From the NCBI GenBank assembly GCA_046483985.1, contig JAWOCD010000090.1:32001-96000 (forward strand): a stretch of DNA of 64,000 nt, given 5' to 3'. The position numbers were made by a program, and so were the translations under genes. Shown here one piece after another: positions 3,175 to 56,783 of the stretch. The first letter of the stretch is position 1. Each line of letters begins with the position of its first letter. This DNA is from Promethearchaeia archaeon. GTDB lineage: Archaea; Asgardarchaeota; Lokiarchaeia; Sigyniarchaeales; SOKP01. The notes under the pieces are model-generated. The model saw nothing but the letters and a program-made list of their open reading frames with translations, had not been told where the DNA came from and made no database searches.

Positions 3175-3969
3175 ATGAGTGTAAAAAAGAATATTTCAGA
3201 GAAGTTGAATCGACTCTATAATTACCTAATTGATCCAAAAGTGACAAGGCGTAATATAATTTTTATATCAATATTTTTCCCAATAATGCTAATAATTGGT
3301 TATGTCGTAGCACTCTCCTTTGGAGGATCTGAAATACCTCCTGGAGCTTATAACATAATAGATAATTATATAAGCGACATGGGTTCTCATCGATATACCC
3401 CGATTCCCAAATTTCTTGATGATAGTGTCATGATAACAGCCATCTTATTAGTTCCACCATCCTTCTATATTAAGCATATCATTGATTTGAAATCAGAACA
3501 ATTAGAATCTTTAAACGTGCCAAAAAGTTATTCCACCATTGTATTAATAATGATGCTTATCGGATTGTTTGGTATTTTTAGTTCAGGTTTTATATCTGAA
3601 GATGTGGCAATTAGTTTATATCCGGTAACTACAAGTGCATTCGATTTACATGATATCCTTTCCACTGTCCAGTTTATTGGGCTTGCTAGTGCTGGTTTTT
3701 TTATTGGGATTATCTTAGTGCGTTATCCATCAGGGATTCTTGAATTAGGTGCTTACGAAAATAAGTCAAAAATAATCCCAATTTTACTGGGAATAATCAT
3801 GATTTTTCTCACACCAATACTTACTATCTTTTATTTGATAGAATTGCCCCCATCAGCCCCATTCTGGGAATGGATGTTGTTTTTCTCCCTTTTTGGATGG
3901 ATTTTAGCCATTGGAATAATAGTTCTCCATCAAATTAAAAAAGAAGAGCTAAAACAAGAGAAGAAGTAG
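3175..3969 (+). CDS. Multi-pass membrane protein, DUF998-like
   Basis: About 6 hydrophobic segments; YNIIDNYISDMG motif after TM1; conserved H and WEW near the later helices. Confidence 0.7.
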   Translation: MSVKKNISEKLNRLYNYLIDPKVTRRNIIFISIFFPIMLIIGYVVALSFGGSEIPPGAYNIIDNYISDMGSHRYTPIPKFLDDSVMITAILLVPPSFYIKHIIDLKSEQLESLNVPKSYSTIVLIMMLIGLFGIFSSGFISEDVAISLYPVTTSAFDLHDILSTVQFIGLASAGFFIGIILVRYPSGILELGAYENKSKIIPILLGIIMIFLTPILTIFYLIELPPSAPFWEWMLFFSLFGWILAIGIIVLHQIKKEELKQEKK

Positions 3970-4073
3970 TAAATCCAGATAGGCTTCTTATTATTATTGC
4001 GAAAATTTTTTATCTTACGTTTTCTTCTCTCATTTTTTTTTTTTTCATCTATAAAATTCAACAGAATTTGAAG

Positions 4074-4430
4074 TTAAGTATAGTAGGGGCTGAAATAAGT
4101 CAAGAAGAATTCAAGCCTTACATGCCAAAGGAAGATAGCGATGATCTGCTCCTTATGGCGCTGGTCCATGAAGACACACGACTTGTCCGTGAGGGTTCCC
4201 TCGAAATTTCCCACCAGATACTCGCTGTCTTTGACAAAATTCTTGACATCTTCGGAAACGCGCACGTCACGCCCCTTCAGTTCCATGATGTCGCCGAAAA
4301 ACGTGATGCGGCATATTTTCGAGGCGAGGGTGTTGAGCGTATGCGATTTGGGGAGAGGGCTGATGCGGCCGGGATTTTTCGCCGAGACCCCGTGTAGAAA
4401 CCGGTAATACCAGATAAGGACGCAGAATTT
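4074..4430 (-). pseudogene. N-terminal fragment of a CapA/PGA_cap-type metallophosphoesterase
   Basis: Minus frame reads RITFFGDIM...KDSEYLVGNFEGTLTD (GDIM and GNxE motifs), then ends early; GC-richer than its flanks. Confidence 0.55.
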
Positions 4431-4707
4431 TTATTCATTATCTTTTCCTCTCTTCCTTTAAATTTATTCAACATTTTTCTAATTATGAATCAATAATTTT
4501 TGGAAATTATCACAGAATCCTTGATTTCCTTTGAATACTTGTTCACGCGGATTCAAGGTTAAACTGAAAACGATAACTCCAAACTTTATTTTTCATTTTT
4601 AAAAGAGACATTCCAAATAACTAATGATTTTTATATTAGTATTTTCTTTTAAGACCTAGATATTTTCTTATTAATTACTTACTTAATCTGTCTCAGAATG
4701 TGAAATT

Positions 4708-5673
4708 ATGCCACTATTGAAAAAATCAACATTGATGGTTGATTTATCGCACAATGAAATGTTGGATTTTGAAGATGGCGAATTTTCAGAGTTCTATACA
4801 TTAATAAAAGGGTTAAACCTTCACATAAAAAAAAATGAATCATCCCCTCTTACAAGCGAGATTTTGAGCAAGGTCGATATTTTACTTATTGCAAATCCAA
4901 TAAATGAATATTTCTCGAAAAAAGAAGTAAAAACGATCATCGATTTTGTTAGAACAGGCGGCCGTTTATTCATTACCAGTGAATATGGTTCTGATTTTCT
5001 CCAAAAAACCAATCTCAATGATATCACTAAAAAGCATTTCGGAATCTATTTTGAGAAAAATCTTTTGAAAGAAAATAATAATGAAAATGAAAATTGTTCC
5101 AGTATTTTGAACATCCGTCAATTTGAAGAAAATGAGGTCACTAAGAACCTTAGGCAAATCCGATTTGGCGGAGTCTGCTCTCTGCTTTTGGACAAAAACG
5201 CAAAACCATTGATATATGCAAACGGTTCGACCTGGGCTGAATTCTATCGGGAAAGCATGGAAAAATGGGAAAAGGAAGAAGATAATTCGGAACCTTACGT
5301 AATTGCGGCTTATACGGAATACGGAAAGGGAAAAGTTATCACCTTGGGAGATATTGATATTTTAAGCGACATACCCAATATTGGCATCACCACCTTAGAT
5401 AATAAGACGCTTATTCAAAACATTTTTGCTTGGTTAATGGAACCAAACGATGATAAAGATGCAATTTTCTGGACCTTAAATCAGATGGGTGATATCCAAA
5501 ACCAGATGAAATTAATGAATCAAAAAATTCTAAATCTTATTGAATCCATTTCGTTTCTGGAAGATAGAGTGAGCCATTTAGAACAAAAATATGCTCTTTT
5601 AGCCGATAAGGTCTCTCGGCAAGAAAATAAAAAAGAAACAAAGCAAAACAAAAATTTTACCCTCGTAAAATAA
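4708..5673 (+). CDS. GldG/IFT52 (GIFT, GATase1-like) domain protein with C-terminal coiled coil
   Basis: DLSHNE...DILLIANP..FSKKEVKTIIDFVRTGGRLFI...GKGKVITLGDIDI; heptad-like C-terminus. Confidence 0.65.
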   Translation: MPLLKKSTLMVDLSHNEMLDFEDGEFSEFYTLIKGLNLHIKKNESSPLTSEILSKVDILLIANPINEYFSKKEVKTIIDFVRTGGRLFITSEYGSDFLQKTNLNDITKKHFGIYFEKNLLKENNNENENCSSILNIRQFEENEVTKNLRQIRFGGVCSLLLDKNAKPLIYANGSTWAEFYRESMEKWEKEEDNSEPYVIAAYTEYGKGKVITLGDIDILSDIPNIGITTLDNKTLIQNIFAWLMEPNDDKDAIFWTLNQMGDIQNQMKLMNQKILNLIESISFLEDRVSHLEQKYALLADKVSRQENKKETKQNKNFTLVK

Positions 5674-39709: not shown

Positions 39710-40702
39710 TTATATCTCCTTAAACTTTTTCAATAGAGAATCCGCCATTTGATAAGGGTCTAACTCTCTGTCTCCAACTTTTTCCACTAACTCGTTGACT
39801 TCCTTATCAGTTTCCATAAGATTTTCAATTTTTTTTTCAATTTTAAATTTTAAAATCTGGAGAATTTCGTTTTTAATTTTGTCTTTAAGAAGAATCTCGT
39901 TGAATCCCGATTCTTCTAAAAATTTCTGGTGTTTATCCAAGATCTCCAGAAGATCATCAAAATTTTCACCAGTAAGTGAATTTACTTGAAGTATTTTTGG
40001 AGCCCATAATTCCCTTTTTTCATATTCTTGCATTAACTCATCGTTTTGATATTTAAACGTTTCATTTAATTCTAACATTTGCCGGATTTCGGCTTCCTTT
40101 TTATCGGCTCCTGGTATATCCATTTTATTAACTATGAAGATATCGGTTATTTCCATTAGACCGGCTTTGATTGCTTGAATGTCGTCTCCCAATCCAGGGA
40201 CGACTAATACCAGAACTGTTTGGGCTGATTTAAAGATATCCACCTCTGATTGTCCCACGCCTACGGTTTCTACGATAATTACATCACATCCGTACACATC
40301 TAAGATTTTTATTGCGTCATCGGTCGCCCGAGCTAATCCACCGAGTTGCCCCCGATTGGCCATACTACGTATAAACACGTTTTTCAAGGAAAAGTTTTCT
40401 TTCATTCTTATTCTATCTCCCAACAAAGCGCCACCAGTTAAGGGAGAAGTTGGATCAACACAAATAATACCCACGTTCTTTCCTTGTTTGATAAAGATCT
40501 TTGTAAGGTTTGAAATAAAAGTGGACTTTCCACTCCCGGGAGCCCCAGTAATTCCCAAGATATATGCATTTCCGGTTTTATCGTAAATGGAATTAATGAT
40601 CTTTTCCGCTGCTTGAATATCGTTCTCAACGAGAGTAATTAATCGTGCAGCGGCCCGAGTATCATGATCGGTAAGCCGTTGAATTAAGTCTTGATAAACC
40701 AT
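39710..40702 (-). CDS. meaB: MeaB/ArgK mutase-associated GTPase
   Basis: GITGAPGSGKST, VDPTSPLTGGALLGDRIRM, ETVGVGQSE, NKMD. Confidence 0.95.
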   Translation of the reverse strand: MVYQDLIQRLTDHDTRAAARLITLVENDIQAAEKIINSIYDKTGNAYILGITGAPGSGKSTFISNLTKIFIKQGKNVGIICVDPTSPLTGGALLGDRIRMKENFSLKNVFIRSMANRGQLGGLARATDDAIKILDVYGCDVIIVETVGVGQSEVDIFKSAQTVLVLVVPGLGDDIQAIKAGLMEITDIFIVNKMDIPGADKKEAEIRQMLELNETFKYQNDELMQEYEKRELWAPKILQVNSLTGENFDDLLEILDKHQKFLEESGFNEILLKDKIKNEILQILKFKIEKKIENLMETDKEVNELVEKVGDRELDPYQMADSLLKKFKEI

Positions 40703-40713
40703 CAGAACCCAAT

Positions 40714-41115
40714 TTATCTTTTTAAATTATTTTTTACAAACTCAACAATCTCTTTCAATTCCGTGCCAGGACCATGAAATCCTTTCAATCCGCATTCTTT
40801 GAGATAGGGGATATCTTCATCCGGGATGATCCCTCCCACGCTCACAAGCACATCATTGATATTATGTTCTTCTAATTTTTCCATGAGGGCAGGACATAAA
40901 GCATTATGCGCTCCGCTTAGAATACTGAGTAATACGGCATCGGGATCCTCTTGAATAATGGTATTTAAAATATCATCGGGCGTCTGATGCAGCCCGGTAT
41001 AAATTACTTCCATCCCAGCGTCTCTTAACGCTCTTGCAATTACTTTTGCCCCCCGGTCATGACCGTCTAAGCCAGGTTTACAAACGAGCACTTTTATCTT
41101 TCTATCGTTTGACAA
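40714..41115 (-). CDS. Acyl-CoA mutase cobalamin-binding small subunit
   Basis: KPGLDGHDRGAK, SILSGAH, GGIIP. Confidence 0.95.
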   Translation of the reverse strand: MSNDRKIKVLVCKPGLDGHDRGAKVIARALRDAGMEVIYTGLHQTPDDILNTIIQEDPDAVLLSILSGAHNALCPALMEKLEEHNINDVLVSVGGIIPDEDIPYLKECGLKGFHGPGTELKEIVEFVKNNLKR

Positions 41116-41128
41116 TTACTCTCCTCTC

Positions 41129-42760
41129 CTAAAAAATAGAATCTTCTTTATATGTTCCAAACACTTCTTTAAGCACACCTACAATTTCTCCCACTGAAGC
41201 ATATTCTTTAACACAATCTATGATATAAGGCATTAGATTTTCAGTGCCCTCAGCGGCCCGTTTCAGCTCGAGCAACGCTTCTTTTGTTGCCCCTTCATTT
41301 CGTTCCTTTTTCACTGACTTGAGCTTTGCTTTTTGCTCTTCTGCAACTTTTTCATCTACCTTTAAAATTTCGGTGGATTCCTGCTTCTTCGATTTATATT
41401 TATTTACTCCAACGATAATCCTCTCGTTATTCTCAACTTCTTTCTGATATTTATAGGAGGCATTAGCAATTTCTTTCTGGAAGAAATTCTTTTTTATTGC
41501 TGGAATTACCCCTCCCAGTTCTTCAATTCTGTCAAAATATGCATTTGCCTCTTCTTCCATTTTATTTGTTAACCATTCGACATAATACGAGCCCGCTAAA
41601 GGATCGACAGTGTCTGTAACGCCCGATTCATGGGCGATAATTTGTTGGGTTCTTAAGGAGATGCGAACCGCTTTTTCTGTTGGTAGACATAATGCCTCAT
41701 CAAACGAATTGGTATGCAATGATTGCGTTCCTCCCAATACCGAGGCGAGGGCTTGGAGAGTAACCCGTACTATGTTATTTTCTGGTTCTTGGGCAGTAAG
41801 TGAAACGCCCGCAGTTTGTGTATGAAATCTAAGTCGCATTGATGTGGGTTTTTCTGCACCTAATTCTTTCATTTTCTTTGCCCATATTCGCCGTGCAGCC
41901 CGATATTTACAAATCTCCTCGAAAAAGTTATTATGGGCATTAAAGAAAAAGGAAAGTCGATGGGCAAAATCATCAATATCTAATCCTCTTTCCATCGCCC
42001 ATTTTACATATTCAAAACCATCTGCTAAGGTAAATGCTAATTCTTGCACCGCAGTAGATCCAGCCTCTCGTATATGATATCCACTAATACTAATGGTATA
42101 CCATTGCGGAACATGCTTGGTACAATATTCTATTGTATCAACAATTAATCGCATTGAAGGTTCTGGAGGGAAGATCCATGACTTTTGGGCAATATATTCC
42201 TTTAAAATGTCATTTTGAATCGTCCCACGTAATTCTTCTGATGGAACTCCTTGTTTTTCTCCCACCACGATATACATTGCTAATAAAATAGAGGCAGGTG
42301 CATTAATTGTCATGGAAGTAGAAATTTTAGATAAATCAATTCCGTCAAACAAGATTTCCATATCTTTTAACGTATCTATCGCCACACCTTCCTTTCCTAC
42401 TTCTCCGAGTGCCATTGGATCAGTTGATTCATATCCGTATATGGTCGGTAGGTGAAAGGCAACGGAAAGACCAGTTTGGCCATGCTCTATTAGATATTTA
42501 AATCGTTTATTCGTCTGTTCTGCAGTTCCGAATCCGGCAAATTGCCGCATTGTCCATAATCTTCCACGATACATATTTTTATATGCGCCGCGTGTAAAGG
42601 GATATTTCCCTGGTTCGCCTAAATCTGCCGCATAGTTTACGTCTTCAATATCTTCGGGTTTATATAATCTTTTTATATCAATATTTGAAAGATTTTTAAA
42701 ATGATCTTTCCGTTTTTTTGGTAACGGCTTTCCCTTATCTTTTTTGCTACTTTCAGTCAT
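41129..42760 (-). CDS. Acyl-CoA mutase large subunit, isobutyryl-CoA-mutase-type residues
   Basis: PGKYPFTRG, WTMRQFAGFG, QNDILKEYIAQK, SGYHIREAG, GGTQSLHTN. Confidence 0.93.
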   Translation of the reverse strand: MTESSKKDKGKPLPKKRKDHFKNLSNIDIKRLYKPEDIEDVNYAADLGEPGKYPFTRGAYKNMYRGRLWTMRQFAGFGTAEQTNKRFKYLIEHGQTGLSVAFHLPTIYGYESTDPMALGEVGKEGVAIDTLKDMEILFDGIDLSKISTSMTINAPASILLAMYIVVGEKQGVPSEELRGTIQNDILKEYIAQKSWIFPPEPSMRLIVDTIEYCTKHVPQWYTISISGYHIREAGSTAVQELAFTLADGFEYVKWAMERGLDIDDFAHRLSFFFNAHNNFFEEICKYRAARRIWAKKMKELGAEKPTSMRLRFHTQTAGVSLTAQEPENNIVRVTLQALASVLGGTQSLHTNSFDEALCLPTEKAVRISLRTQQIIAHESGVTDTVDPLAGSYYVEWLTNKMEEEANAYFDRIEELGGVIPAIKKNFFQKEIANASYKYQKEVENNERIIVGVNKYKSKKQESTEILKVDEKVAEEQKAKLKSVKKERNEGATKEALLELKRAAEGTENLMPYIIDCVKEYASVGEIVGVLKEVFGTYKEDSIF

Positions 42761-42889
42761 AATAATTCAGTATAAAAATATTATCTTATCATATGTGCTT
42801 AAATTTGATAAGTAATTACAATTACTTATAATTTTAGAAAACTTAAAATTTTGAATATTAAATTCTTAGGCTTAGAATTTACTAATGTG

Positions 42890-43450
42890 TTAAAATTCGA
42901 TCCCCGGTCTCGCTTTAAACCCATCGTAGTATGGATGCCGAACTAGTTCAAAATGAGTAACGTAATCGGCAATGTCGCATAAATTTTTATTGTACGTCGT
43001 CCCCGTTAATATGACTTCCACATGATCTGGTTTGGCTTGGACAATTTTAATAATTTCTTTTGTATTTACCAAATCAAACCGGATTGCTTCGCCTATCTCA
43101 TCTAAAACTACTAAATCATAATCTCCTGAGGAAATCACGGATTTAGCGTATTCCACACCTCTCTGGGCTTTTCGTACTACTTTTTGTGGAGGTTTTTCGT
43201 CCGGATAGATAAATTCGTAGCTTCCAAATTGCTTTATCGGGATTAGGTCTTTTAAGAAATGAACCTCCCCGATAAAATAGCCTTGGTGTTTTTTCTCTTC
43301 GTCATGAAGCTTGAGAAATTGAATTAATACCGGCTTAAATCCGTGTCCTAAAGCTCGAATGATTGTGCCCATGGATGTTGATGTTTTCCCCCTTCCTTCC
43401 CCGTAATAATAATGCACTAACCCATATTCTAAATGTGGATGATTCGTCAA
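42890..43450 (-). CDS. cobO: Cob(I)alamin adenosyltransferase (CobO/BtuR type)
   Basis: YYGEGRGKTSTSMG, IQFLK, DLVVLDE, EVILTG, HPY...ARPGIEF. Confidence 0.9.
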   Translation of the reverse strand: MTNHPHLEYGLVHYYYGEGRGKTSTSMGTIIRALGHGFKPVLIQFLKLHDEEKKHQGYFIGEVHFLKDLIPIKQFGSYEFIYPDEKPPQKVVRKAQRGVEYAKSVISSGDYDLVVLDEIGEAIRFDLVNTKEIIKIVQAKPDHVEVILTGTTYNKNLCDIADYVTHFELVRHPYYDGFKARPGIEF

Positions 43451-43715
43451 AAAGTGTCGACCACTCAGTTGTTTTGAAATGTTTTGAATAAGAATTTAAT
43501 AAATTATCATTGTTAATAAATAAAAGCAATAAAAATTTTTTATTTACATTTAATTTGGAGCAAAAGAAGTCCCTCTCCTTCTTAAGTTATCCATCTTTAG
43601 CTGAAATTAAAAATTATCCTAAATTTTAATAAATTAAAGCTTAATACTATATATACATATAGGAAGTAAGATCCATTACAATAAACTGATACTTGTATAA
43701 TTTTGAATGTGATAG

Positions 43716-44279
43716 ATGATGAATGTTGTCGATCGTTATAAAATGAAACTCACCGTGTTAGGAGATCCGAGTGTGGGAAAGACCTCACTGATTCATCATT
43801 TTTGTGAGGGTTATTTTAGAGATTCTTATCTTTCCACTATCGGAGTAGAATTTCTGACGAAAGAAGTTGATGTCTCGATAGATGGGGAAGAAAAGAATGC
43901 AATCCTGCAGATTTGGGATGTAGGCGGCCAAGACCTTTTCTCAAAACTGAGGTCGAGCTATTTAAAAGGAGCCCAAGGTGCGCTCATTCTATTCGATGTA
44001 ACTAATAAATCTACCTTATTACACATCGATTCATGGATAGAGGAAGTGTTACGCTCTTTAGACTTAAGCTCTGTGACAGATCTTCCGTTTATTGTAATTG
44101 GAAACAAAATCGATTTGGATTTTGATCAGAGACTAAAAAAAAAAGCAGATAATTTTATGAAAAATCAGTTTGAATCACAAATACCCATCCATTATACCAG
44201 CGCAAAAACTGGAACTGGGATGAATGAGGTATTTGAAAAAATTACAAAACTTATGATTAAAGAATTAGACGAGAGATGA
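43716..44279 (+). CDS. Rab-like small GTPase
   Basis: GDPSVGKTS, YLSTIGVEF, LQIWDVGGQ, GNKID, TSAKTG; no C-terminal Cys. Confidence 0.93.
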   Translation: MMNVVDRYKMKLTVLGDPSVGKTSLIHHFCEGYFRDSYLSTIGVEFLTKEVDVSIDGEEKNAILQIWDVGGQDLFSKLRSSYLKGAQGALILFDVTNKSTLLHIDSWIEEVLRSLDLSSVTDLPFIVIGNKIDLDFDQRLKKKADNFMKNQFESQIPIHYTSAKTGTGMNEVFEKITKLMIKELDER

Positions 44280-44286
44280 AAATGAA

Positions 44287-45645
44287 ATGGGAATGGAAGA
44301 ATTTCAAGAAGAATTGGGAAAAGAAGAGATTTTAACTCAAAAAGCGAAGAAAAATAAGCTTTCTTCTGGGATTAGAGAGTTTGATGAAATGATCGGAGGA
44401 GGGTTTACTGGAGCAAGTATAAATTTAATTCAAGAAAGTTTAGGATGCGGGGGTGAGATCCTCTGCTATTGTATTGCCCGTGCAAACTTAAAGCTATCAA
44501 ATAAAGTCCTTATCATTTATTCCGATCCCCTCTCCGAGTATTTAGTTAAGAGGTTAAAAACATTTGACAGTCCCGTGCCAGAAGACCAAAAAGAACAAGA
44601 CGCTTTCATTGGGAAAGGAAAGGAACATGGAAAAAATTTATATATTTTAAATTTAGTGGAATTAGCGGAAGCAGATATTTCATTAATGGAGGATAAGCAT
44701 GAATTACAGATCCAGATTTCTTCTGCGATTAGGGATATGTTGGCTAATATTCAAAAGGCAGGGGATGATTATTCTGAGAGATTTATCTTTTACCTTTCCT
44801 TGAATCCATTTTTAATCAAATTAGGAGAATCTACATTAGATTTAATTTATAATAATCTCATTAATGCCAAAAAAGAAAATTATGTGCAAGTCGCCTTGTT
44901 ACAAAAAGACTTGATTTCGCATGAGGTGATCGCCCGAATTCAGAGTTTATGTCATTTAATCTGCGATTTGTCTGCTTATGATATTGGAGGTTTAACGGAC
45001 AATCGAATTAAAATCTTGAAACATGCTGGAACCGTCCACGATATTAAAGCTGAGCCATATGTATTAGAGTATAACCGTGAAATGGACAAGTATAACTTCT
45101 TAATCCGAGGAGCTTTTCTTACTACCTTTGAAACCATGAGAAACTTACTGAAGTATCAACATGGAAACGTTTATCTTGCCAATATTCCGTATCTAATTGC
45201 ACCGGTAAACTATTTTAATTCATTGTTGGATATGCCGCTCAATATAGAGATAGATGCTGGAAAGAGGGAGATTAGAGAAAAAAGCCAGGGAATCGGACGA
45301 AAACTAACTTCCGGTACTGAAACCACCTATTATCTTGAAGGGTTAGAGTTATTGAAAGCGACCCTCCGAAGTCTTTCTTTGTTTGGATTTGGTAATTTTG
45401 AATTGAAGACATACGAAGAAAAAGAAGCATTATTAGAGATTTCAACAAGTTTCAACAAAGAATTTCATGAAAAATCCTACAAGTTATTTATAAAAGGTAT
45501 GATCGAGGGTATCATACGCCGATCCATCAATAAAGATATACGCTCATTTCGCATCATTAAAATCAGTGGTGTAAATGCCGGTAATTATCCAAATGAACAT
45601 GAGTATAAACTCAGTATCCGATTAGAAGTTGCTGGCGAGAGCTAA
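44287..45645 (+). CDS. KaiC/RecA-like domain with degenerate Walker A fused to a V4R-like domain
   Basis: LSSGIREFDEMIGGGF...RIKILKHAG; C-terminal GNVYLANIPYLIAP...GIGRK...FGFGNF...FIKGMIEGII. Confidence 0.7.
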   Translation: MGMEEFQEELGKEEILTQKAKKNKLSSGIREFDEMIGGGFTGASINLIQESLGCGGEILCYCIARANLKLSNKVLIIYSDPLSEYLVKRLKTFDSPVPEDQKEQDAFIGKGKEHGKNLYILNLVELAEADISLMEDKHELQIQISSAIRDMLANIQKAGDDYSERFIFYLSLNPFLIKLGESTLDLIYNNLINAKKENYVQVALLQKDLISHEVIARIQSLCHLICDLSAYDIGGLTDNRIKILKHAGTVHDIKAEPYVLEYNREMDKYNFLIRGAFLTTFETMRNLLKYQHGNVYLANIPYLIAPVNYFNSLLDMPLNIEIDAGKREIREKSQGIGRKLTSGTETTYYLEGLELLKATLRSLSLFGFGNFELKTYEEKEALLEISTSFNKEFHEKSYKLFIKGMIEGIIRRSINKDIRSFRIIKISGVNAGNYPNEHEYKLSIRLEVAGES

Positions 45646-45661: not shown

Positions 45662-46816
45662 CTATGGGTTAACTGCTTCGTACGCTTCACTTATCGCTGA
45701 ACATCCTCCGCATCTTACGCAGCCCGCCTTATGGATGAGGGGATTCACCCCATATTTTTTCATTAATTTTGCAGCAAGATTATAAATTTCTAATAACATA
45801 TTATGGCTTGTCTGGGGTAATTCTTTCTTAGAGTTTGGAATTGGTCTGACAGGGGTAATAAAGGGAACAACACCGATAGATACGAGTTCTTCCAATCGCT
45901 CCCGAAAATCCTTGGGAGACTCTCCAAATCCAGTGAGTATAAAGCTTTCCACTTGGCTTCTCCCGAAAACATCAACTGCATACTCCCAACTTTTTTTAAA
46001 TTGTTTGTAGGGGATTTTCGCTTTTCCTGGTGTTATTACTTCCCGTACAACGTCATTTAAGATTTCAATATGGATGCCGATAGTATCGGCTCCCGCATCG
46101 TGCAACTTAGAATAGAGATTCATATCTTCTATGGGTTCAATCTGAATATGGAGGGGGATCTCTGGATGGTCGTTTTTTAACTGTTCCAAAATCCTTATAT
46201 ATCTATTGACGCCTTTATTTTTCTCGGCAGTTGTCCCGCTTGTCAAGGTCATATGAGCGCATCTTCCCTCTTTTTTGGCTTGTATTACCACCTCTGACAA
46301 TTGTTCTGGGGTTTTGTCCAAAATGGTAGACCCATATTTTAAACTGAGTTCTACCCCACAAAATTTGCAAGCTTCACCGCATTTCCAATATTTACACTTT
46401 TGAAATACCGTACTTGCAAGACAATCCACGCCATGAACTAAGGCAATTTTTTTCATTTCAACGCCGTCCGAGGTTTTATAACTTGGGTCATAATATTCTG
46501 GTTCTGGGACTAACTTAAGTGTGCAAAAACTCTCCTTATCTGCAAGATCATATACCTCGAATTTATCATCTTTTTGGTGTTTTAGCTTTAGACTGGTTTT
46601 TTGTCTGGTGTCCCACATTGCAACGTTTGCTAAAGTTTTACCATCTTCAAATAAAAAATATCTTCCCCCTAAAGGGCCGGCCCCCCCTTTTCGACCGTAT
46701 TTCAGATCGATGCCGTGTGCTTTATAGGTAGATTTCAAGTTCTTGTCTAAATAGATGCCTTGACATAGCAGTTGGGTCTTCTTTTGAAGAATCTTTTTTT
46801 TAAGAATTTCCGTCAT
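45662..46816 (-). CDS. Radical SAM protein (MSMEG_0568-like)
   Basis: GRKGGAGP, LASTVFQKC...CKFC, LTSGT, AGCVRCGGCSA. Confidence 0.88.
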   Translation of the reverse strand: MTEILKKKILQKKTQLLCQGIYLDKNLKSTYKAHGIDLKYGRKGGAGPLGGRYFLFEDGKTLANVAMWDTRQKTSLKLKHQKDDKFEVYDLADKESFCTLKLVPEPEYYDPSYKTSDGVEMKKIALVHGVDCLASTVFQKCKYWKCGEACKFCGVELSLKYGSTILDKTPEQLSEVVIQAKKEGRCAHMTLTSGTTAEKNKGVNRYIRILEQLKNDHPEIPLHIQIEPIEDMNLYSKLHDAGADTIGIHIEILNDVVREVITPGKAKIPYKQFKKSWEYAVDVFGRSQVESFILTGFGESPKDFRERLEELVSIGVVPFITPVRPIPNSKKELPQTSHNMLLEIYNLAAKLMKKYGVNPLIHKAGCVRCGGCSAISEAYEAVNP

Positions 46817-47086: not shown

Positions 47087-47728
47087 ATGCCTGATAGAAG
47101 ACCGTGGCGTTGCTACCGAAAATGGAATCGACGTCCGTTTCAACATAAACGAAGTGAAAATCACAGATTAGAATATGCACGAGGAGGAAGCGAATCCAAA
47201 ATCCAACGCTTTTGGGGAGGTAATAAATTTGTTAAATGGAAAGATTGGGATCTTGTTATCGGTTTAAAAGTGGAAGAAAAGATACAAATTTCCAGTAATG
47301 CCTTAGAAGCCGTAAGAGTCTCCATTGGTAATATGGCGAATAAACGAATAGGAAGAATGAATTACCGATTACGAATCAGACCGAAACCGTGGCAAAAGTT
47401 CAGAGAGAATCGTATGTTGGCATTTGCGGGCGCGGATCGTGTTCAATCTGGCATGAGAAATTCATTCGGACGACCGTCTGGGGTTTGTGCTCGTATGAGA
47501 GCGGGACAGATTCTTGCGGAAGTGGGGCTGAAAATGGAACATCTCGATTTTTTCAAGAACAGGTTCAGAATCGCAAAAATGAAAGTGCCAAGTACATGCC
47601 AAATAGTTGTGCTTAAATACGAGACTTTAGATAAGCTAAAACAAGCGGGCTTACCGCTATACGATGCCGAAAAAAGACAAGAGATTGACTTTTATCAAAT
47701 CATGCCCCAACAAGCGGAAGAAGTGTAA
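47087..47728 (+). CDS. rpl10e: 50S ribosomal protein uL16 (L10e)
   Basis: RPWRCYR, QISSNALEAVR, RENRMLAFAGADRVQSGMRNSFGRP. Confidence 0.95.
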   Translation: MPDRRPWRCYRKWNRRPFQHKRSENHRLEYARGGSESKIQRFWGGNKFVKWKDWDLVIGLKVEEKIQISSNALEAVRVSIGNMANKRIGRMNYRLRIRPKPWQKFRENRMLAFAGADRVQSGMRNSFGRPSGVCARMRAGQILAEVGLKMEHLDFFKNRFRIAKMKVPSTCQIVVLKYETLDKLKQAGLPLYDAEKRQEIDFYQIMPQQAEEV

Positions 47729-52732: not shown

Positions 52733-53920
52733 TTAAGAGATTTTGTTTTGTATTCTCACTTTCTTTTGTGAATTATCTTCAAAAATGCTCACTATAGCAT
52801 TAATCCCTTTTTGTTTTAACTTCAATTCAATTTCTTTTTCCTCGTTTTGTCTCCATTCATTATATCCGGTAAGGATTGGCTCTGTTTCAAATAGTCCTCG
52901 TTGGAGCCCAGTTAATTTTACGGTTACCCCCTCGAGATTTTCATTTGACATATTTTTTATCGAGAGGATATATTTATTCTCTTTAGCATCAATGGAGGTA
53001 ACACTAAATCGCTTTTCAAATTGCGAATTTGCACCCTCAAATAATCCTGGGGTTTGTGCTTTCCGAGCTGCGAATAAATCCAATTCTTCTTCCTTTATCT
53101 CTTTCATCTTGGCGATGGTTATGGGCACTTCTAACTCTATGGGTTTACCCCTTCTTCGCGGTCTGCCTAGAATTTTTAACGACCATCGGGAATAATCGCC
53201 ATAGCGAAATCCCCATTCTTCTTTTTCCGAAGAGGACCAGAGATAATCATGGCTCGGCTCAGCAATTTCAGGAACTTTAATCAATAAATATCCTTTCTCC
53301 GTATTATCGGTTTTTGCTTTACCTGCAATAGCAGGAGGGAGTTTTTGAACTTGACTGCAATTTTTTCCATATGCTTGACAATGACAGATTAAGTTGGCAC
53401 TTTGAAGCAATCTTATTTCAATCTCTCTTAATTCTTCAGAAGTATAATTGATCTTTATCGTTTCGCCGGGTTTAAACACGTCCTTCTTGAGATTTATTTC
53501 AAGTCCAGAAATGGATAAGGACACTGGATGCGGTTTTTTTTTCTCTTCGGAGGGTTTTGGGAGTATCGCTATTTCGTGTGCTTTTTTTATGGTAATTGCT
53601 TCGTCCGGGTTAATCGGGCTTATTTGTCGTAAAACTAAATGAACCTTATATTCCAAATCCCTTTTCTTAATGGTTGGAACTACATTTGATTTAATTAGCA
53701 TCGGACGGGTTCTAATGTAAGTTCCCGCTTCAAAATGTCCCTTGGGAAAGACTTCTTGTTTGTTAATTTGAAGCTCTTTGTCACAAGGAGGTTGTGTGAT
53801 TAAACGGATACCACTCCATAATATGTCTTTGTCCTCCTCAAACTCATATTCCGCTTTAATGCCGAGTTTGTCCCCCACAAACACAGATCCGTTGTTTAAA
53901 TCACTTAATTTCAGATTCAT
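52733..53920 (-). CDS. Arrestin-fold protein with extra C-terminal Ig-like domain
   Basis: VFVGDKL...FEAGTY...VVPT...LEYKV (arrestin-N); LKKDVFKPGETIKI...IKVPEIAEPS...LEVPITI (arrestin-C). Confidence 0.65.
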   Translation of the reverse strand: MNLKLSDLNNGSVFVGDKLGIKAEYEFEEDKDILWSGIRLITQPPCDKELQINKQEVFPKGHFEAGTYIRTRPMLIKSNVVPTIKKRDLEYKVHLVLRQISPINPDEAITIKKAHEIAILPKPSEEKKKPHPVSLSISGLEINLKKDVFKPGETIKINYTSEELREIEIRLLQSANLICHCQAYGKNCSQVQKLPPAIAGKAKTDNTEKGYLLIKVPEIAEPSHDYLWSSSEKEEWGFRYGDYSRWSLKILGRPRRRGKPIELEVPITIAKMKEIKEEELDLFAARKAQTPGLFEGANSQFEKRFSVTSIDAKENKYILSIKNMSNENLEGVTVKLTGLQRGLFETEPILTGYNEWRQNEEKEIELKLKQKGINAIVSIFEDNSQKKVRIQNKIS

Positions 53921-54084
53921 TTCTCATTAATCCTATGAAAATAGATATTTGATATTGTATAATCTATGATTGATATTATATTTTAGTAATAGTAATGATA
54001 ATAATAATAATTTTTTTTCTTATTTCAATAATTATGAGGGAGAATGAAGAAATAATTAAAAAGAATAATAAATTTAAAAAAAAT

Positions 54085-54993
54085 TTATTCTGAATGTGCT
54101 GAGATAACCACGTCGGCAAATAATTTCATGTCGTTAAGTAGCGTGTTAAGCTTTTCTTGGGAATCCATATCAAACTCGCCGGACTTCATGACAAGCACGG
54201 AAATAATATATTTAAAGATATGCAATTCGATTTCTTGCCCGTCATCGTTCCGACCCTTGAAATCGGCAGAGTCCGACATAAAGATGTTCTCTCGCACAGT
54301 ATTACATGCATTAATAAAGTCTCGCAAATCTCCTCTGAGGGTGAGTCCCGAACTAACTCCCTTTACGTTATGAACAATCACATTCCCGGAAATATCTGAG
54401 ATGATAATCTTGGCGTCTATGTCCTCTAACTTTTCCTCAGCTTTTTCTACATGTTCTTTTAGTTCTGAATAGGAGCTAATAAGAATATCTCGGAAAATTG
54501 TTGCCAGCTTGTCTTGGTTGTAAATTGAGGTCAGATAATACTCAAATTCATAGTCCTTAAACATATCTAAGAATTTTTCTTTTGCCTTTTTCACATTTGT
54601 ATCTAACATTTCTTTCTCATAATCCTTAGTGTCGTACTTATGAAGAAACAGAAAAATCTTGGGTTTCTCATTGATTTTCCTGTGAGTTTTTAAAATTCCC
54701 TCAAAATATTCTTTGGCTTGCTCAAACGAGCTGGGATCATGTAAGTCAACAATAGGTATCAGAATGTCATCTCCTCTGAACAAGTCAGGCTTTTCAAGAT
54801 ATTCCTGTCTGTACTGTTTTTGACCTCCAAAATCGAAGATTCCGACTTGCAACCCCAGAAATGGATGCCGTCTCGTCTCATATAAAATTGTAGGACTCAA
54901 GTCCTTCGTATCTGTAGGACTTTTGCCAGCAAACGCTACAGAATAAAGAGAAGTCTTTCCACAGCCCGAAAGTCCCACTAGACTAATTTTCAT
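54085..54993 (-). CDS. Rag/Gtr-like GTPase with C-terminal roadblock-like domain
   Basis: GLSGCGKTS, SPT, DFGGQ, HKYD, LTSIY, followed by an alpha/beta tail of about 120 aa. Confidence 0.85.
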   Translation of the reverse strand: MKISLVGLSGCGKTSLYSVAFAGKSPTDTKDLSPTILYETRRHPFLGLQVGIFDFGGQKQYRQEYLEKPDLFRGDDILIPIVDLHDPSSFEQAKEYFEGILKTHRKINEKPKIFLFLHKYDTKDYEKEMLDTNVKKAKEKFLDMFKDYEFEYYLTSIYNQDKLATIFRDILISSYSELKEHVEKAEEKLEDIDAKIIISDISGNVIVHNVKGVSSGLTLRGDLRDFINACNTVRENIFMSDSADFKGRNDDGQEIELHIFKYIISVLVMKSGEFDMDSQEKLNTLLNDMKLFADVVISAHSE

Positions 54994-55085
54994 TTTTAGT
55001 TTGATTTCCTCTTTATATTTTAATATCTATAATAATGTATTTCATTTATATTTTAAATTAATTTTAAATTAAAAAAATTTGATTT

Positions 55086-56555
55086 TTATTTTGGTCCAAA
55101 TGATCGTGTCTTACTATAAATCTTACCGTATTCGTCGGAGACCGCTTCCAGCAATACATCGCCTTCTGAATCTTCTGCTTGATAATCAATTTCGATTGTT
55201 TCATACGGAAAGAGTTCCTTTATATTCGTAACCCACGGATTCTTTTCAAACATGTCCTCCAAGGTGACCACTCTGATTTTAACATTCTCTAGGATAAATC
55301 CCACCGTATTTTGGATGGTAAAATGAATAATATTATCCTCCTCGTCGAATTTCTTACGTACACTTAAGGCCCTTCGTGACTCCAGTATATGTTTTGTCTT
55401 TGTATCCTCCGGTTTTGTTTCCATTCGCTCTTCTTCTTCTTCTTCTTCCATATCCCGTACGATAAAAACCTTTCTCTTTTGGATATTGTATTGAGAAACT
55501 TTTTTTAATTTTGCCAAAAAGAGCACCGAATTGAGGTTAATCTCATTGTAGGGTTTAATAGTCAGATATTCTTTTTCAGCGGCATCTTCGATAATTTCCG
55601 TTCCAATGCCCGAGCGGGCAAACACGGTGTTTTTTTTTGCTTCGCTCCCGACCGACCCAACGGAAATATCAGCATTTTCGCAGGCCAAATCGGTACAAAA
55701 ATTGCAGCTGGAGGATTTATATTTATGTAGGGATTTAATTGAATAGGATTTGACGGGATCATCATCCTCATCGTAATAAACATGGAATTTTCCCTTATTA
55801 ATGTCCATTTTCTCGACCTTTTCCAAATCGACCCCATCTTTTTCAAACATGGGATATAGGGACTCCGGAGAAAATGAATCCATACAGAAAAGCCCTATTT
55901 TGAGCACATGTGCCCTCATAAAATAGCGAAGCATCCCCGCGGGGGAATTCATCATTTTATCAACAGCGTTGATATTGCACGGCGTTCCCACGAAGGCAAT
56001 AGAACGGTAATCTTCCCGAATCGCTTCCATTAGCGCCTCAACCGTTTGCGAATGGCAGTAAATCGAACCCGCAGCTTTTATGGCATCGTCCTTGTTGGTT
56101 ACGATTTGAGCCACGGGATACCATGGATTATCGGGATCTTTCATGGTGACAACGGCCGCATCGATCAATTTTTCATCAAATAGGTAACATAATAAGCTTG
56201 TCACGGTTCCTCCATCTTGGTAACCGAGTACCTCGGGTATATCCGTATTAGCGACGTAACCGGTATCAAATTCTCCGATCAATTGAACCGGGTCCGTTAT
56301 AGTTCTGGGGCATTGATTATAACAAATTCCGCATCCGGTACATTTGCCGACCAACCGTGGTTGTCCTTTAACATGGTCCCATTCTAAGACAGGACAAACG
56401 GCGGCACACGTTCCGCATTCAGTACAGATCCCCGTTCTGATGACTTCTTTCATAAGTTTTCCATATGAATCTTTTTTACCCTCGAGCTTCTTTTGAATGT
56501 AGTCAAAAGAGTATTCGTATTTTGTTTCGTCTTCTTTTACTTCATTTTCCGTCAT
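55086..56555 (-). CDS. FrhB/FdhB-family (F420-binding) protein with N-terminal ferredoxin and C-terminal Ig-like extension
   Basis: CTECGTCAAVCP, QDGGTVT, VGTPC, GLFCMDSF, CNFCTD, DISVGSVG. Confidence 0.9.
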   Translation of the reverse strand: MTENEVKEDETKYEYSFDYIQKKLEGKKDSYGKLMKEVIRTGICTECGTCAAVCPVLEWDHVKGQPRLVGKCTGCGICYNQCPRTITDPVQLIGEFDTGYVANTDIPEVLGYQDGGTVTSLLCYLFDEKLIDAAVVTMKDPDNPWYPVAQIVTNKDDAIKAAGSIYCHSQTVEALMEAIREDYRSIAFVGTPCNINAVDKMMNSPAGMLRYFMRAHVLKIGLFCMDSFSPESLYPMFEKDGVDLEKVEKMDINKGKFHVYYDEDDDPVKSYSIKSLHKYKSSSCNFCTDLACENADISVGSVGSEAKKNTVFARSGIGTEIIEDAAEKEYLTIKPYNEINLNSVLFLAKLKKVSQYNIQKRKVFIVRDMEEEEEEERMETKPEDTKTKHILESRRALSVRKKFDEEDNIIHFTIQNTVGFILENVKIRVVTLEDMFEKNPWVTNIKELFPYETIEIDYQAEDSEGDVLLEAVSDEYGKIYSKTRSFGPK

Positions 56556-56783
56556 AATATTTTCTGATTCAATATTTGTTAGATAAATTAAAATTAATAA
56601 TTGATTACTTAATGTAATAAAATCCTCTAAAAAAATCTTTTTCTTTCATCATTATTGAGGGGGATTTTTAAGCATCCGATTCATTTTGTTCTATTTCCCT
56701 ATAATTAACCCCAAAATCCACATATAAGTACAAAAGAAATCCCAATTCGCGAAGAAAAATTAAATTACCTTTCAAAAAAATTG

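Follow-up and report, generated by a model that had tools for sequence, protein, structure and literature searches.

A Rab-like small GTPase gene inherited together with the gene of a predicted inactivated KaiC/V4R-type partner in Lokiarchaeia

Introduction

In prokaryotic operons of the MglA-MglB type, the partner encoded next to a small GTPase acts as its regulator, and both in MglA-MglB and in the actinobacterial conservons CvnA-D a Ras-superfamily GTPase is inherited together with a dedicated, non-enzymatic partner, which has the Roadblock/LC7 fold. Asgard archaeal genomes encode dozens of small GTPases, almost none of which has an assigned partner, and in MK-D1 the GTPase genes are generally not found in operons with Roadblock- or TRAPPC3-type regulators, making the matching of GTPases and regulators difficult (PMC10933270). 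In this work, we describe a two-gene locus at positions 43716 to 45645 (+ strand) of a 64,000-nucleotide stretch from a Promethearchaeia archaeon (contig JAWOCD010000090.1, positions 32,001 to 96,000; hereafter the window), in which the gene of a Rab-like GTPase (gene A) is followed by that of a protein joining an apparently inactivated KaiC-like domain to a V4R-type domain devoid of cysteines (gene B).

Transport protein particle (TRAPP), the guanine nucleotide exchange factor (GEF) of Rab1/Rab11, contains the subunits Bet3/TRAPPC3, Trs31 and Trs33. Its exchange site, as described for the 2008 structure of Cai et al. (PDB 3cue), is reportedly formed mainly by the longin subunits Bet5 and Trs23, with only the C-terminus of Bet3 contributing; this C-terminal tail enters the nucleotide pocket. 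V4R is established as the ancestor of the Bet3 subunits of TRAPP (PMC2253512), and structures of Asgard TRAPPC3/V4R proteins have been solved (PMC10933270). Our literature search retrieved no paper in which an Asgard GTPase is paired with an inactivated KaiC (iKaiC)-V4R protein, or in which V4R genes are reported as linked to GTPase genes, the work of Makarova et al. (2017; mBio 8:e01959-17) on KaiC-like ATPases being outside its coverage.

Taking together the conserved adjacency of the two genes, the phylogeny of the partner GTPases and the predicted domains of gene B, we consider that the locus would constitute, with a probability of about 0.55, a dedicated small-GTPase switch module, in which the Rab-like GTPase is served by a cognate dead-KaiC/V4R partner acting on its nucleotide state.

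Results and Discussion

Organization of the gene pair

The source assembly (genome label G000; 4.06 Mb, 97% complete) carries in the window two + strand open reading frames separated by 7 nt, as described in the initial annotation. The unit is composed of the following elements:

43451..43715, + strand: presumed promoter region of the two-gene unit, AT-rich and intergenic, flanked by gene A and the divergent cobA-type gene
43716..44279, + strand: gene A, Rab-like small GTPase of 187 aa (Pfam Ras and PDB sequence matches), with its TGA stop at 44277-44279
44280..44286, + strand: spacer aaatgaa, 7 nt, from the gene A stop to the gene B start
44287..45645, + strand: gene B, 452 aa, with its ATG at 44287; predicted inactivated KaiC-like domain followed by a V4R-type domain without Cys
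44359..45105, + strand: predicted inactivated KaiC/RecA-like domain of gene B, ~residues 25-273 (Foldseek, family profile, model)
44434..44457, + strand: degenerate Walker A, ESLGCGGE, residues 50-57 of gene B (alignment with active KaiC domains)
45139..45630, + strand: predicted V4R/Bet3-fold domain of the XylR_N+V4R sensor type, ~residues 285-448 of gene B, without Cys (domain model, Foldseek, VIA-align, hhalign)
45478-45480, + strand: Tyr398 of gene B, where canonical V4R has its first Zn-ligand Cys (hhalign)

A TATA-like run, tactatatatacatata, is located upstream of gene A at ~43646-43662, within the presumed promoter.

Conservation and co-inheritance of the pair

The pairing recurs in related genomes: apart from the window, 14 distinct loci drawn from genomes and metagenomes have a GTPase gene immediately upstream of the gene B homologue and in the same orientation (locus L069 is cut at a contig end, and its pairing is not assessable), and one locus, L072, described below, lacks it. 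The junction is as short elsewhere, the two genes being 1 nt apart in L001 and overlapping by 4 nt in L003 and L004, and in the latter two both flanks of the pair are unlike those of the window. The partner GTPases share 45-63% identity with gene A (37% over half of the protein in L035, which is cut at a contig end), and the best paralogue of gene A within its own genome reaches 120 bits vs 408 for the self-match. In a quick maximum-likelihood tree (IQ-TREE), the partner GTPases form one clade (Shimodaira-Hasegawa-like approximate likelihood-ratio test 100, stem 0.92) apart from 39 paralogues of the genome, and its four sub-clades correspond to the identity groups of gene B. The gene A and gene B lineages co-diversify and are co-inherited.

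The gene B family comprises 34 clusters at 90% identity, with 6 representatives below 1e-30 at the 50% level, and is confined to Lokiarchaeia-type Asgard archaea, the homologues being labelled Promethearchaeota or Lokiarchaeia by their sources. No third gene travels with the pair in the 12 compared loci, which contain neither a Roadblock nor a longin gene, longin genes elsewhere in the genome not having been searched for. The recurrent neighbours are a radical SAM gene (7/12 loci) and the gene of ribosomal protein uL16 (5/12 loci), a recurrence that looks like a conserved chromosomal position and not like a functional link; this neighbourhood suggests that the pair was lost from most relatives.

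Gene A encodes a Rab-like GTPase

Gene A matches Pfam Ras at 8.5e-40, and its best 60 matches among PDB sequences are all Rab/Ypt proteins (Ypt7 8e-34, Rab7 ~1e-30, Thorarchaeota Rab 2e-30); its genome holds 65 Ras-family matches. The G motifs comprise G1 GDPSVGKT (residues 16-23), the switch-I T41, G3 WDVGGQ (67-72), G4 NKID (130-133) and G5 SAK (162-164), and they are intact, including the catalytic Gln of WDxGGQ, in gene A and in eleven partner orthologues. With all G motifs and the Pfam match, gene A belongs to the Ras superfamily, and the encoded GTPase looks competent to bind and hydrolyse GTP. A C-terminal Cys, as in prenylation-type signals, is absent from gene A (which ends in KELDER) and from the eleven orthologues, so that, for want of the prenylation motif, the protein is not assigned to the Rab family in the strict sense; "Rab-like" seems a fair label on its best PDB sequence matches, and Rab family proper would go further than the evidence.

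The N-terminal domain of gene B is predicted to be an inactivated KaiC domain

When searched as a single sequence against Pfam and NCBIfam, gene B gave weak matches confined to the N-terminus (KaiC 0.011; KaiC/FlaH/RadA 1e-6 to 4e-3), and weak Pfam matches to PAXNEB/Elp4 were obtained for 30/32 members of the family. A profile built from 32 homologues and compared with PDB sequences found only KaiC/RadA proteins, again at the N-terminus only, with KaiC CII at 1.7e-10. The AlphaFold model of full-length gene B has a predicted local distance difference test (pLDDT) score of mostly 80-93 over residues 25-273, and with this model Foldseek retrieved KaiC (2.3e-12), FlaH (1.2e-11), PH0284 (7e-11) and Sso2452 (~1e-11 to 1e-10), all of which confirms the KaiC relationship put forward in the initial annotation. 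The KaiC-family N-terminal motif G-I-x-x-L-D-x-x-L-G-G-G is retained, reading SSGIRELDEMIGGGF / SSGIREFDEMIGGGF; together with the RecA-like core fold, it places gene B in the KaiC/RecA superfamily.

The motifs for ATP hydrolysis have not been retained. Residues 49-58 read QESLGCGGEI vs the GxxGxGKT of active KaiC, with Lys and Thr replaced by Gly and Glu; the lack of GKT noted in the initial annotation extends to the family, as K-T is found at this position in 0/32 members, and G53 is invariant and G56 nearly so. The column of the Walker B Asp is occupied by Leu or Ser, inside an invariant SLNP motif, and the catalytic Glu-Glu pair of KaiC is replaced by an invariant Asp-Pro. Having lost both Walker A and Walker B, gene B falls outside the active KaiC-type ATPases, and its product would be unable to act as an ATPase. 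Judged by these motifs, the N-terminal domain is an inactivated KaiC domain, which is more than the "Walker-A-dead" state first proposed, and the double loss supports the idea of an inactive RecA/KaiC scaffold.

Inactivated KaiC domains are signalling modules common in archaea; the DUF835 and MEDS forms and the Elp4/5/6 rings resemble gene B in having a RecA/KaiC fold without ATPase motifs, with signalling or scaffold use (PMC5847659). Gene B differs from DUF835/MEDS iKaiC in its domain order, KaiC-like and then V4R, and in that none of the 32 family members has a Pfam match to DUF835 (PF05763) or MEDS. DUF835 gave no match at E <= 0.01 in the genome of gene B, and two DUF835 loci in unrelated euryarchaeal genomes have no GTPase neighbour. 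We also observed a stand-alone dead KaiC-like domain of the same kind (P0044, 236 aa; KEDIGAGSNV, VVDPT, SLNP) that is not accompanied by a V4R-type domain.

The C-terminal domain of gene B is predicted to adopt a V4R/Bet3 fold

With the full-length model, Foldseek returned KaiC-type matches only, as the N-terminal domain filled the list, and the C-terminal domain was therefore modelled separately; in the full-length model, the stretch 276-320 is predicted poorly. Residues 270-452 modelled alone (36 homologues) reached a pLDDT of 87.3 and a predicted template modelling score of 0.82. For this model, the top Foldseek matches were the phenol sensors PoxR, MopR and DmpR (3.4e-7 [PoxR] to 5e-5, TM ~0.6), followed by TRAPPC3/Bet3 (6aq3 4.5e-5, 3cue_B 9.7e-5), Trs31/33-type subunits, BcsD/AxCeSD and H-NOX, the TRAPP subunits as a whole ranging from 4.5e-5 to 7e-4. 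VIA-align, a structure aligner independent of Foldseek in which unrelated folds start below ~Z 7, gave Z scores of 12.8 for DmpR (163 residues aligned), 12.2 for BcsD, 11.8 for PoxR and 11.0 for the V4R protein MJ1460; among TRAPP structures, the scores were 11.2 for the Drosophila core (7b6d_F), 9.4 for 7e2c_B, 9.3 for 3cue_B and 9.2 for 2cfh_A, with H-NOX at ~8 and Thorarchaeota TRAPPC3 at 7.1. The modelled domain would thus have the two-layer alpha/beta fold of V4R, with its alpha-alpha-beta-beta-alpha-beta-beta core, and also the Bet3-type fold, and the V4R/Bet3 likeness on which the initial annotation had staked its proposal holds in the model. In these comparisons, the V4R sensors of bacteria and archaea match the domain no less well than the TRAPP subunits do.

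No member of the family (32 examined) matches Pfam V4R (PF02830) at E <= 1, so that by the Pfam criterion the C-terminal domain is not a member of the V4R family, and none matches Pfam TRAPP_Bet3. Homology to V4R is supported at the sequence level because the domain can be linked to a Pfam-positive V4R family, that of P0041, a 423-aa protein found by phmmer (4.2e-8) in an exhaustive search of 1.8 billion representatives. P0041 has a Pfam V4R match (1.6e-12) with cysteines and a KaiC-like N-terminal domain without GKT; in BLASTP, P0041 matches residues 167-369 of gene B (1e-13), and hhalign aligns the C-terminal domain families of both proteins over 125 columns (96.1%, E 3.6e-9). Furthermore, the three clusters nearest to gene B in the ESM Atlas are KaiC+V4R proteins (0.93). 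A search of five euryarchaeal genomes recovered no full-length P0041-like protein.

The absence of Cys reported in the initial annotation was also confirmed: there is none in residues 270-452 of gene B, and none among the listed invariant or near-invariant columns of the C-terminal domain in the family. The near-invariant Tyr398 aligns in hhalign with the first Zn-ligand Cys of the P0041-family V4R, and the C-terminal tail is variable. DmpR, PoxR and MopR (XylR_N + V4R) and MJ1460 are the best structural matches to the whole domain; however, DmpR/PoxR-type domains bind phenols and hold a structural Zn with cysteines, whereas the gene B domain has no Cys and carries Tyr398 at the first ligand site, and they are attached to AAA+ transcription activators, whereas the gene B domain follows an inactivated KaiC domain and is encoded next to a GTPase. 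BcsD, a scaffold/filament subunit, is likewise not known to carry the Zn-Cys site. By analogy with such scaffold-type members of the fold (Bet3, BcsD), the loss of this site would mildly favour scaffolding or docking over small-molecule sensing.

V4R genes are linked to GTPase genes beyond this pair

The genome of gene A has 3 genes with a Pfam V4R match, and 3/3 are clustered on the same strand with genes of Ras- or Arf-type GTPases:

L031 (G000:C6:2518-5652): Roadblock, XylR_N/V4R, 168-aa unknown protein, Ras-type GTPase
L032 (G000:C66:92002-95121): Arf-type GTPase, V4R (MetOD1-like)
L033 (G000:C51:31325-34459): Ras-type GTPase, thioredoxin/KaiB-like protein, V4R, zinc-ribbon membrane protein, Ras-type GTPase

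In 80 other genomes of the class, a same-strand GTPase gene was found within 1.5 kb at 22 of the 32 V4R loci examined, which come from related genomes and belong to few orthologous types, representing a handful of events and not 22 independent ones; a same-strand GTPase frame occurs in 3.2% of random 3.1-kb windows of the genome of gene A. These clusters appear to differ from the published remark on the operons of MK-D1.

One of the closest described architectures is that of the P0041 family of Jord/Freyarchaeia (named "V4R domain-containing protein" or "4-vinyl reductase" in databases), which has the same iKaiC-V4R organization as gene B and a small GTPase nearby. Unlike gene B, these proteins have a Pfam-positive V4R with Cys and occur as four tandem paralogues, and their GTPase neighbour is of the Rag/Gtr1 type, within a trio of genes, whereas gene B has a Rab-like GTPase immediately upstream. 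In five Jord/Freyarchaeial genomes belonging to a single genus, this trio (FrhB-like protein, Rag/Gtr1-type GTPase and 390-aa protein) is directly followed on the same strand by four tandem iKaiC-V4R paralogues of 423-434 aa (7569-16786 in L148, G038:C1:1244000-1263000; others in L154-L157), an arrangement whose dead-KaiC/V4R products could form a hetero-oligomeric assembly linked to a switch of the Rag type. In another Lokiarchaeial family (4069-7501 in L150, G302:C1:194000-205000), a gene for a 589-aa KaiC - V4R - DUF5943/V4R protein precedes those of a Ras-family GTPase of 301 aa and of a TackOD1/zinc-ribbon protein. Several further genomes of the class encode proteins of ~605-614 aa that have two V4R matches.

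An orthologue of the FrhB - Rag GTPase - 390-aa trio is also present in the window at 52736-56645 (- strand), 7 kb from the Rab-like/iKaiC-V4R pair and on the opposite strand. This proximity may be a coincidence, and an ancestral linkage of trio and pair is not claimed, as there is no trio within 20 kb of the pair in genome G165.

Function of the pair

The proteins of genes A and B are very probably a working pair, since their adjacency is conserved, the partner GTPases form a single clade and V4R-GTPase linkage is recurrent. According to the switch module proposed here, the two genes would be co-transcribed and co-inherited, and the gene B protein would be the cognate partner to which the Rab-like GTPase binds. 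As KaiC, FlaH and their Elp4-6 relatives form rings, and given that gene B would not hydrolyse ATP, its KaiC-like domain would most likely be an oligomerising scaffold; the V4R-type domain would most likely provide a sensing or docking surface, and in relatives such domains dimerise and bind hydrophobic ligands or partner proteins. The partner would then most likely act on the nucleotide state of the GTPase, as a regulator of the GEF, GTPase-activating protein or GDP-dissociation inhibitor type, on a cue read by the V4R-type domain; for this scheme we infer the physical interaction, the oligomeric state, the ligand and the direction of regulation. Several observations weigh against it. Full-length gene B was found in 4/301 sampled genomes of the phylum (the source genome, a second genus of the same family and a genus from another family of the order), a rare and patchy distribution by which the family is not a core function. 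In one locus (L072; Ga0123519_10011279, gene B homologue at 3944-5326), purD lies upstream across a 346-nt gap, and the nearest 4 kb contain no GTPase. Fusions of the GTPase with its partner were not found: the 34 homologues from a search of 248-791 aa are all 418-460 aa long, with none of ~640 aa, and a search of 792-2260 aa gave no longer gene B-like protein. Small parts of the locus were present in one salt-lake metatranscriptome and one DNA run, in which the only RNA contig (45580-45800) covers the end of gene B at its 3' side together with the convergent radical SAM gene and does not bear on co-transcription. Finally, the wider V4R-GTPase linkage goes back to the few events mentioned above.

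The same linkage evidence would serve an effector equally well: the GTP-bound GTPase would recruit or rearrange a dead-KaiC/V4R oligomer, a scaffold comparable to the Cys-less Bet3 and BcsD, with its nucleotide state unchanged. The missing Zn site, typical of ligand-sensing V4R, points in this direction, as do the BcsD match (Z 12.2), the use of inactive RecA-like rings as scaffolds and the weak Elp4/PAXNEB matches of the family. We nevertheless regard an effector as rather unlikely, and by analogy with MglA-MglB-type operons, where the co-encoded partner is the regulator, we favour a regulator over a pure effector, two roles that the data do not separate. The likeness to MglA-MglB and CvnA-D stops at the partner, which is KaiC-like + V4R in gene B and not Roadblock/LC7, and at gene A itself, which is Rab-like with a catalytic Gln. 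Gene B could also be a stand-alone sensor of an archaeal KaiC-type signalling network, co-transcribed with the GTPase gene and kept next to it by genomic inertia or common regulation, and not a direct partner of the GTPase. L072 fits such a sensor, as do the related iKaiC-V4R proteins of another family (genomes G017 and G006, loci L149 and L151), which have no GTPase within 5 kb, and the frequency of inactivated KaiC domains in archaeal signalling (PMC5847659). We consider this the least probable of the explanations weighed here, for the adjacency persists, with very short junctions, where both flanks change, the GTPases are one orthologous clade diverging in parallel with gene B, and V4R-GTPase adjacency recurs in unrelated gene families.

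A further proposal makes the Bet3-fold domain on its dead-KaiC scaffold a TRAPP-like GEF for the Rab-like GTPase, which would make the module a forerunner or analogue of TRAPP-Rab in archaea. Like TRAPP Bet3/TRAPPC3, Trs31 and Trs33, gene B has a predicted V4R-derived fold, has lost the Zn-Cys site, as has eukaryotic TRAPPC3 (PMC10933270), and is associated with a Rab-type GTPase, the pairing being conserved; the structural matches to TRAPP subunits (6aq3, 3cue_B, 7b6d_F and Bet3 itself) agree with this. However, the domain resembles DmpR, PoxR, MJ1460 and BcsD at least as closely as Bet3, Thorarchaeota TRAPPC3 scores only Z 7.1, and the family has no Pfam match to TRAPP_Bet3 or V4R; the 12 loci have neither a longin nor a Roadblock gene, longin subunits forming most of the catalytic surface in TRAPP; the gene B tail varies, whereas that of Bet3 enters the pocket; and gene B is fused to a RecA-like pseudo-ATPase that TRAPP does not have. 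Because the domain is not closer to Bet3, no longin partners occur at the loci and the tail is variable, we hold the TRAPP-like GEF to be improbable, and it seems equally doubtful that a Cys-less V4R/Bet3-fold domain, in multiple copies on a dead KaiC ring, would be a genuine exchange factor for a Rab-like GTPase. The two-gene module of the initial annotation stands, therefore, as regards the conserved pair, the predicted inactive KaiC domain and the predicted V4R/Bet3 fold, and does not hold in its step from a Bet3 fold to TRAPP-like Rab regulation, given the equal closeness to V4R sensors and the lack of longin or Roadblock genes at the loci.

With this locus, one Rab-like GTPase lineage of Asgard archaea has a fixed, co-inherited partner, which is predicted to bear the fold from which TRAPP Bet3 is presumed to originate (PMC2253512). 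As V4R genes are GTPase-linked generally in the class, defined protein pairs become available for studies of binding, exchange, hydrolysis and structure, and they make it testable whether V4R/Bet3-fold proteins controlled GTPases before eukaryotes. Should gene B prove to be an exchange factor, Asgard archaea would possess a functional TRAPP precursor or analogue devoid of longins, and the Lokiarchaeial V4R-GTPase linkage would mark an ancestral V4R-based control of GTPases, the source of eukaryotic TRAPP.

Genomic surroundings

PADLOC gave no defence-system match for the gene A or gene B protein. The pair is flanked by the divergent cobA-type adenosyltransferase gene and by the convergent radical SAM gene. 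Upstream of gene A, at 39710-43450 (- strand) of the window, lies a methylmalonyl-CoA mutase cluster of the ordinary kind, composed of a 330-aa P-loop protein that looks like a MeaB/ArgK-type GTPase, a 133-aa open reading frame that looks like the B12-binding subunit, a putative mutase large subunit (with an orthologous frame in L001) and the CobA/CobO adenosyltransferase (Pfam 7e-48). Downstream of gene B, the radical SAM gene at 45662-46816 (- strand) is TIGR04043 MSMEG_0568-like (271 bits, under the 303.7 cut-off), and the gene of ribosomal protein uL16 is located at 47087-47728 (+ strand).

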